Source of the DNA: Methanobacteriota archaeon
GTDB taxonomy: Archaea > Undinarchaeota > Undinarchaeia > Undinarchaeales > Undinarchaeaceae
NCBI GenBank assembly: GCA_002687935.1
Contig: NZBN01000007.1
Location: 69,030-133,029 of the forward strand
DNA: 64,000 nucleotides
Direction of reading: 5' to 3'
Shown piece after piece: positions 50,211 to 50,720 of this stretch. A program made the translations under genes and the position numbers. Each line of letters opens with the position of its first letter. The stretch's first letter is position 1. The notes below the pieces were generated by a model that did not search any database, was not told the DNA's origin, and saw nothing but the letters and a program-made list of their open reading frames with translations.

Positions 50211-50435
50211 GATCAGATACCAATACTAAGTATTAGTCCTCATGATAAGCAAGCTACAATAAACTGTCTAAGGAAGTATAGATTCGATCACTCCTCCCAA
50301 AGCAATCATTGCAGCCGCTATCTATTTAGCCATACTTTGTAGAGGGCTAAGCTCAAATTAAATTGAGCGACTTATTGAATGCCCGAGCCACTATATATAG
50401 TTTATTAGAATTTTCCAAATTTCCTTAAAATAAAA

Positions 50436-50566
50436 TGCGGGGAGTAGGATTCGAACCTACGAAGGCACTAAGCCACATGGTGTCTTATCATCACGTCCTG
50501 CGACGTTCATCGCTCAAGACTGTGTGATCTTGAGCCATGCCCATTTGACCGCTCTGGAATCCCCGC
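50436..50566 (-). tRNA. tRNA-Leu(CAA) with 47-nt intron at 37/38
   Basis: GCGGGGA/TCCCCGC acceptor, CATGG/CCATG anticodon stem, CTCAAG|A loop, long variable arm GGC-TTAGT-GCC, GGTTCGAATCC; BHB bulges AGA and ACA around CUCA/UAAG (one C.A mismatch). Confidence 0.93.
50482..50528 (-). ncRNA. tRNA-Leu intron; candidate minimal box C/D guide RNA for Cm34
   Basis: Intron ATCACACA-GTCTTGAGC-G-ATGA-ACGTCGCAGGAC-GTGATGA-TAAGAC: 9-nt antisense to tRNA G31-C39, D-like AUGA, exact box C GUGAUGA. Confidence 0.65.
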
Positions 50567-50601
50567 ATCGGCAAGTTTCACTTCTTTTCGGTAACTTGCA
50601 A

Positions 50602-50673
50602 TGCGCCGACCGGGACTCGAACCCGGGTTACGAGCTTGGAAGGCTCGGGTCATAGCCACTAGACCACCGGCGC
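50602..50673 (-). tRNA. tRNA-Gly(TCC)
   Basis: GCGCCGG/TCGGCGC acceptor; CGAGC-CTTCCAA-GCTCG anticodon arm. Confidence 0.96.
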
Positions 50674-50720
50674 ATAAGTGTTTCTTTTGAAACAATCTTC
50701 AAGAAGCTATTAAAGAGTTT

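Follow-up and report, generated by a model that had tools for sequence, protein, structure and literature searches.

The window analysed here, a 64,000-nt stretch spanning positions 69030-133029 of contig C7, belongs to an Undinarchaeota (DPANN) assembly of marine metagenome origin (genome G000; 0.67 Mb, 11 contigs, 86.6% complete), and a search of sequencing runs for the locus matched marine DNA metagenomes only. Archaeal content in the window includes an rRNA operon, with tRNA-Ala in its spacer, and an archaeal RNase P RNA. On the minus strand of the window, between 50172 and 50674, lie tRNA-Gly(UCC), a gap of 34 nt, tRNA-Leu(CAA), a gap of 263 nt, and the start of the 16S rRNA, and both tRNAs may be transcribed within the leader of the rRNA operon. 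The genes concerned are as follows.

50601-50674, minus strand: tRNA-Gly(UCC), 34 nt upstream of tRNA-Leu(CAA).
50436-50566, minus strand: tRNA-Leu(CAA) gene (Rfam RF00005, 39.8 bits; ARAGORN with introns).
50566-50529 and 50481-50436, minus strand: 5' exon and 3' exon, respectively, of tRNA-Leu(CAA).
50528-50482, minus strand: 47-nt intron of tRNA-Leu(CAA) at the canonical position 37/38 (ARAGORN -i).

Within the anticodon arm and intron of tRNA-Leu(CAA), we distinguished the following elements.

50529-50535, minus strand: target strand G31-G37 (GCUCAAG), read from the sequence and paired with the guide in the minimum-energy fold.
50532, minus strand: C34, the predicted methylation site.
50521-50528, minus strand: 5' end of the intron, AUCACACA, comprising A50528 and U50527, which lengthen the duplex, and the hairpin loop CACACA (50526-50521).
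50512-50520, minus strand: candidate guide (antisense) GUCUUGAGC, the exact reverse complement (9/9) of spliced G31-C39.
50511, minus strand: spacer G50511, unpaired, position 1 upstream of box D.
50507-50510, minus strand: box D-like AUGA, the non-bulged strand of a kink-turn (4n A, 3n U, 2n G, 1n A).
50493-50506, minus strand: C stem of the kink-turn in the form of a hairpin, ACGUC (50506-50502), loop GCAG and GACGU (50497-50493).
50485-50492, minus strand: bulged strand of the kink-turn, with bulge GAU (50492-50490), G50489 and A50488 as tandem G.A partners, and U50487.
50481-50487, minus strand: 3' strand of the BHB, in which UAAG (50487-50484) pairs with C32-A35, including a C34.A mismatch.

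A sequence-only reading of this DNA had proposed that the intron is a minimal box C/D guide aimed at C34 of its own tRNA, and the strings on which it was built (intron, guide, AUGA, hairpin, and GUGAUGA) were all found in place when the sequence was read again. The guide is followed by G50511, AUGA, the hairpin (50506-50493), and GAUGAUAAGAC, which extends to the 3' splice site. Against the unspliced tRNA, the guide forms 8 Watson-Crick pairs and one G.U pair, and G50515, which lies fifth upstream of AUGA, is the partner of C34; on both counts the earlier reading was correct. An antisense element directly 5' of box D or D', with the target nucleotide at the fifth position (D+5), is one mark of an archaeal C/D guide RNA. 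By an arithmetic estimate, the chance expectation for an exact 9-mer complement inside a 47-nt intron is about 1.5e-4. When rRNA was considered as a target in trans for the Leu intron guide, the only match was a 7-nt stretch of 16S, which is at chance level.

A kink-turn needs a C stem, three bulged nucleotides, and tandem G.A pairs. Because the stem and the 3-nt bulge have to precede the GA, we placed the G.A pairs of the window at G50489 and A50488, which gives G50489.A50507, A50488.G50508, and U50487.U50509 (a U.U at 3b.3n). All three kink-turn components are then present, and the GAU bulge ends in U (L3). The hairpin named in the sequence-only reading exists, although its stem has 5 bp (ACGUC/GACGU) rather than 3 bp. 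That reading had also taken GUGAUGA (50494-50488) as an exact box C. The relatives described below keep a stem, a 3-nt bulge, and then GA, which makes the box C in kink-turn register AUGAUAA (50491-50485), 3 nt downstream; judged by this comparison of sequences, GUGAUGA is probably not the working register, and we rejected it in favour of the register of the relatives, several of which have no second GA on the bulged strand. Two features of the kink-turn count against the guide reading: the boxes in the window are degenerate (AUGA compared to CUGA, AUGAUAA compared to RUGAUGA), and the 4b.4n pair is A.A, not G-C. Some relatives have a canonical CUGA box D.

The topology of the element is that of a terminal C/D motif with loop-joined ends, or equally that of a C'/D' motif in which a stem replaces the K-loop; in one relative (L170), the hairpin stem gives way to a short K-loop. 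Downstream of the C strand, no second kink-turn or second guide was found, with no CUGA and no second RUGA pair. The 47-nt intron, like those of its relatives, has one box pair and lacks the bipartite layout of a second C'/D' motif with spacers of about 12 nt. A cmscan search of 50380-50700 (E up to 10) gave no match to Rfam C/D families, only tRNA and spurious plastid or mascRNA matches; this is weak evidence because the C/D models in Rfam are lineage-specific only. Judged by its layout, the Leu intron appears to work like a box C/D guide yet lacks the bipartite organisation of the family.

Whether the arm or the whole precursor was folded, the minimum-energy structure was a 9-bp guide hairpin with a CACACA loop (z about -4), and this hairpin buries the 5' splice site. 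In the BHB, the 5' bulge consists of A36, G37, and the first intron nucleotide A50528, and the 3' bulge of A50483, C50482, and A50481 (A38). The canonical set of two 3-nt bulges, a 4-bp helix, and the anticodon stem alongside is present, with one C.A mismatch. A fold constrained to contain the BHB had an energy of -17.3 kcal/mol compared to -23.9 kcal/mol for the minimum-energy fold, and was thus 6.6 kcal/mol less stable. Folding bears out the earlier claim that the guide hairpin with its CACACA loop excludes the BHB. In an alignment of 26 distinct sequences, the BHB was 94.8% paired with URAG-NN-A conserved, and the URAG pairing (n = 26) comprised C32-G in 26, U33-A/G in 26, C34-G in 14 or C34.A in 12, and A35-U in 24. 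Both mutually exclusive folds are conserved, which suggests that both are under selection and supports the idea, also put forward in the sequence-only reading, of a fold switch between methylation and splicing. In the minimum-energy fold of the naked RNA, C27-U29 is also paired to the AUG of box D; such pairing would compete with kink-turn formation and counts against the guide reading.

The C34.A mismatch had been taken as a hint of either an intron origin in tRNA-Leu(UAA) or deliberate destabilisation. Relatives split between UGAG (14) and UAAG (12), and the tRNA-Met intron of the same genome shows UAAG opposite CUCA, so we rejected it as a mark of origin; on the sequences compared, the mismatch appears to be a tolerated variant that carries no trace of origin.

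We looked for the Leu intron in other genomes by several routes. A similarity search identified homologues with an intron in four further families of the order, and a core pattern search recovered the layout in 9 of the 13 genomes of the order, from five families, with no match to a reversed control. Four Undinarchaeota genomes outside the order matched neither the core pattern nor a covariance model. A pattern scan of one genome per species gave at least 120 matches; among the matches listed, about 20 were tRNA-Leu(CAA) introns, labelled Woesearchaeota, Nanoarchaeota, Aenigmatarchaeota, Nanobdellati, or unclassified archaeon, and the remaining listed ones, largely from bacteria, matched by chance. 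Among 401 genomes sampled from the phylum to which one Woesearchaeota genome belongs, the pattern matched 22, compared to one match for the reversed pattern. The design is patchy (22 of 401 sampled genomes, and 0 of 4 Undinarchaeota genomes outside the order), and this counts against the guide reading. The guide, the one-nucleotide spacing to NUGA, and the kink-turn are nonetheless kept in homologous introns of five Undinarchaeota families and of Woesearchaeota, Nanoarchaeota, and Aenigmatarchaeota, which is the conservation that the earlier reading had named as a check on itself.

Two side observations came from these searches. The tRNA-Leu(CAA) of Ca. Naiadarchaeum limnaeum (G003; L034/L152) has an extra insertion within its T arm. 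A DPANN-type tRNA-Leu intron is present in genomes that bear the label 'uncultured Methanosarcinales archaeon' (L104, L108, L139); these labels look unreliable, and one of the genomes, G043, is only about 1.1 Mb.

We counted pairs of the guide-plus-kink-turn structure in the alignment of 26 sequences. The structure was 91.8% paired, with a covariation score of 0.39 compared to 0.11 for shuffled columns and at most 0.07 for slid registers. As the pattern used in the wide search fixes the core and the spacing, these columns are conserved by construction in the pattern matches; the position 31 pair and the six hairpin pairs are not fixed by it. Position 31 and the 3' nucleotide of the guide formed AU in 19, GC in 4, CG in 2, and GU in 1 of the 26 sequences and were never unpaired, and all six stem pairs of the hairpin were altered on both sides. 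The guide core CUUGAG and the partner of position 31 are conserved. A one-nucleotide spacer is present in all homologues and is mostly G, with A or U in some covariance-model matches; box D (NUGA) in 34 homologues is AUGA in 15, CUGA in 11, and UUGA in 8; and the N-R-U bulge is GAU in 19, AAU in 6, UAU in 4, and AGU in 2, with GA next. The hairpin geometry is also unforced by the search pattern, and the chance matches of the one-genome-per-species scan serve as a control with the same ascertainment: among the matches listed, a flush stem of at least 3 bp between NUGA and N-RUGA was present in 17 of 20 tRNA-Leu introns compared to 2 of 100 chance matches. These results bear on the alternative that an ordinary BHB intron happens to contain box-like strings. 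UGA and GA motifs are common, and an intron must pair with the anticodon loop in any case to form the BHB. The BHB, however, uses a separate 4-nt URAG, so the 9-nt antisense is additional, and neither the covariation and conservation across phyla nor the difference in flush hairpins is expected of a chance resemblance, which was already disfavoured and which we regard as highly improbable. The comparative evidence (conservation, covariation, and the machinery described below) instead supports the earlier proposal of a single-kink-turn self-guide in the Leu intron.

Across the family, guide duplexes have 6-10 bp and the loops that join guide to target have 3-7 nt, GNRA tetraloops among them; in one genome (G007), the extension of the duplex fits the unspliced form only. 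These dimensions bear on the alternative of a guide that works mainly in trans, with the excised intron, linear or circularised by RtcB, forming an RNP that methylates other pre-tRNA-Leu or spliced tRNA-Leu. Archaeal tRNA introns do circularise (PMC7994747), the tRNA-Trp intron of Haloferax reportedly acts in trans (Singh 2004, cited by PMC7994747 and by PMC11408192), and the guide of the window fits the spliced sequence better than the unspliced one (9/9 compared to 8 plus one G.U). Against this, loops of 3-7 nt would overwhelmingly favour the intramolecular hairpin, the G007 extension does not fit the spliced form, and in spliced tRNA the anticodon stem would need to unpair at both position 31 and position 39. 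We consider a mainly trans-acting guide quite unlikely, and favour action in cis because the loops are so short.

The same device occurs in other tRNA introns. In the window genome, the elongator tRNA-Met(CAU) gene at C2:128008-128147 (outside the window; L167/L204) has a 64-nt intron with the same single-kink-turn layout, which reads CUCAUAA/GCAUC-UUAUGAGU-G-AUGA-hairpin-AGU-GA and places the tRNA's own C34 at D+5. Three families of the order share this Met version, as does another archaeon (G012, G011, G005, and G009; G045). A covariance model built from the Leu alignment and used for a further intron search detected additional Met versions as well as a tRNA-Trp version in G011, and in a 150-genome sample of relatives it matched 34 genomes, in introns of tRNA-Leu(CAA) and tRNA-Leu(UAA) as well as of tRNA-Met and tRNA-Trp. 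The tRNA-Trp(CCA) introns with the device (L202, at G011:C16:32088-32160; L218; L220; L227) come from G011 and three other archaeal genomes; in the tRNA-Leu(UAA) introns (L214, L217), the D+5 nucleotide is U34. Across the four tRNAs, the guides are thus retargeted with the register unchanged. Within the window genome, tRNA-Trp and tRNA-Leu(UAA) have no intron, and the device is absent from the introns of tRNA-Tyr and tRNA-Ile(UAU). The latter (G000 C4:27882-27985, outside the window) has a 29-nt intron without a kink-turn; a tRNA-Ile with a UAU anticodon is unusual for archaea. In the tRNA-Met of G003 (L208), the guide and kink-turn adjoin the 3' half, and because the 5' anticodon segment is not adjacent to it, this tRNA would be a multi-intron or split one.

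In Pyrococcus, C/D sRNAs target position 34 of tRNA-Leu(CAA) and tRNA-Leu(UAA) as well as of tRNA-Met and tRNA-Trp, and the Trp guide alone is intronic (PMC7994747; PMC7668247). The tRNAs that host the device are the same four. This coincidence weighs against the possibility that the intron is a structural or regulatory device without methylation, in which binding of L7Ae chaperones folding of the pre-tRNA, masks the anticodon, times splicing, or stabilises the intron. L7Ae binds many kink-turns outside the C/D class, in RNase P RNA, SRP RNA, and mRNA leaders (PMC5539422), and both the blocking of the BHB by the guide fold and the degenerate boxes are compatible with such a role. It would leave unexplained, however, why, in four tRNA identities, the wobble nucleotide always occupies D+5 and the spacer is fixed at one nucleotide, why the device resides in the four tRNAs that Pyrococcus methylates at position 34 by means of guides, and why the duplex stays within the 10-bp limit of C/D RNPs. 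We judge a device of this kind unlikely, and continue with the methylation guide as the preferred reading.

The proteins that such a guide would use are encoded in the genome: L7Ae, Nop5, and fibrillarin were all found (PF01248, PF01798, and PF01269, all above cut-offs), as the sequence-only reading had required of its proposal. Nop5 (321 aa) and fibrillarin (217 aa) are encoded side by side at C7:65796-67042, just upstream of the window, and the L7Ae gene is on another contig. The Nop5 protein (L161:1147-2109; C7:65442-66404) is ~40 residues shorter than Pyrococcus Nop5 in the dimerisation coiled-coil, a region that is still there. In a search for canonical sRNAs, a strict regular expression gave 0 matches and a relaxed version 3, from which we retained two candidate dual-box C/D sRNAs with spacers of about 12 nt, on the minus strand of C7 near 58541 and on the plus strand of C10 at 24039 (outside the window). 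Their guides include contiguous 10-nt matches to 23S rRNA (positions 2582 and 2631), and one guide also matches 16S rRNA near 1333 at 10 of 12 positions. Because canonical dual-box candidates match rRNA, the C/D system is apparently in use. The only SPOUT methylase found was of the TrmJ family (L229:1498-2178, on C8), which we take to methylate position 32 (Cm32/Um32). TrmL and FtsJ/Trm7 had no match in the 86.6%-complete assembly, and no protein-only route to Cm34 is visible in it.

To our knowledge, intron-borne self-guides are textbook knowledge only for tRNA-Trp. In the literature searched, DPANN included, we found no report of an intronic guide in tRNA-Leu or of the halfmer class as such. 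A close precedent is the guide in the euryarchaeal pre-tRNA-Trp intron (sR50 in Pyrococcus, and its counterpart in Haloferax volcanii; work of Clouet-d'Orval 2001, Bortolin 2003, and Singh 2004 that PMC7994747 and PMC11408192 summarise). As these two papers present it, the Trp guide and the Leu intron share position 37/38, a guide that pairs across the exon-intron junction with its own anticodon loop, C34 at D+5, and mutual exclusion of guide duplex and BHB. The tRNA-Trp intron is, by the same account, a full sRNA that has two guides (for C34 and U39) and the boxes C, D', C', and D, whereas the Leu intron has one hairpin-closed kink-turn and one guide in 47 nt, has tRNA-Leu(CAA) as its host, and does not fit the sR50 type. 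A trans-acting Pyrococcus C/D sRNA targets C34 of tRNA-Leu(CAA), according to PMC7994747 and to PMC7668247, which cites the Lowe snoRNA database. The target nucleotide, the tRNA, and the core proteins are the same as here; the Pyrococcus guide, however, is a free-standing dual-box sRNA gene, and here the candidate guide lies within the intron of its substrate, tethered to the target by a short loop. The 66-nt elongator tRNA-Met intron of Nanoarchaeum equitans gives rise to a stable C/D-like RNA (Randau 2012, PMC3491384), and, as that paper describes it, it resembles the Leu intron in coming from a DPANN archaeon and in having a strong hairpin and a single copy each of box C and box D. The account in PMC3491384 concerns tRNA-Met only, and we liken the two by description.

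Natural archaeal C/D sRNAs have two kink-turns, and the presence of only one in the Leu intron counts against the guide reading. A single box pair is not disqualifying, since, with Sulfolobus proteins in vitro, halfmer C/D RNAs whose guide is open-ended target methylation to a specific site when pairing is at most 10 bp (Yang et al. 2020, PMC7229835). An engineered single-site C/D RNP had lost site specificity (Hardin and Batey 2006, PMC1635284), a loss that PMC7229835 attributes to the 15-bp duplex used; the 2020 study asks whether halfmers occur in cells. The natural duplexes of the intron family described here never exceed 10 bp, and the Leu intron shares with the engineered halfmers one box C/D set, one open-ended guide, and pairing of at most 10 bp. 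The engineered halfmers are laboratory constructs that act in trans, whereas the intron guides, as we read their sequences, would be natural, conserved, and tethered in cis.

Taken together, these results make it probable that the Leu intron serves as a minimal methylation guide of box C/D type, with a single kink-turn (a halfmer), and that it acts on its own precursor. Sequence and comparison suggest that the intron's 5' part would, within the pre-tRNA, fold back on the anticodon loop to form a tethered duplex of 7-9 bp, comprising positions 31-37 plus 1-2 intron nucleotides, followed by one unpaired nucleotide and then a kink-turn made of NUGA, the hairpin C stem, the N-R-U bulge, and GA. 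By analogy with established C/D biology, L7Ae would bind the kink-turn and recruit Nop5-fibrillarin, and fibrillarin would 2'-O-methylate C34, whose partner is the fifth nucleotide 5' of box D. With the guide hairpin formed, the 5' splice site is expected to be locked in a helix, so that refolding to the BHB, with C32-A35 paired to URAG, would have to precede the EndA cut; as refolding would be needed before cleavage, methylation would be ordered before splicing. In the mature tRNA, Cm34 would then restrict wobble.

A broader and distinctly less certain proposal, which we offer tentatively, is that DPANN archaea have a natural class of single-kink-turn, cis-tethered C/D RNPs in the introns of wobble-methylated tRNAs (Leu-CAA, Leu-UAA, Met, and Trp). 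In such a class, the short hairpin loop might replace the second kink-turn as the ruler for the site, the intron might be kept because it is the guide, and the alternation of guide fold and BHB might act as a checkpoint that permits splicing only after methylation; halfmers could also be ancestral to dual-box sRNAs. Candidate self-guides in tRNA-Leu(CAA), and in the Met, Trp, and Leu(UAA) tRNAs of related genomes, suggest a general reason why tRNA introns persist: in very small genomes, an intron may serve as the guide for modification of the wobble base. The arrangement also bears on how site specificity can hold without a second box pair, and the 64-nt RNA comprising substrate plus guide is a possible test system for the order of methylation and splicing.
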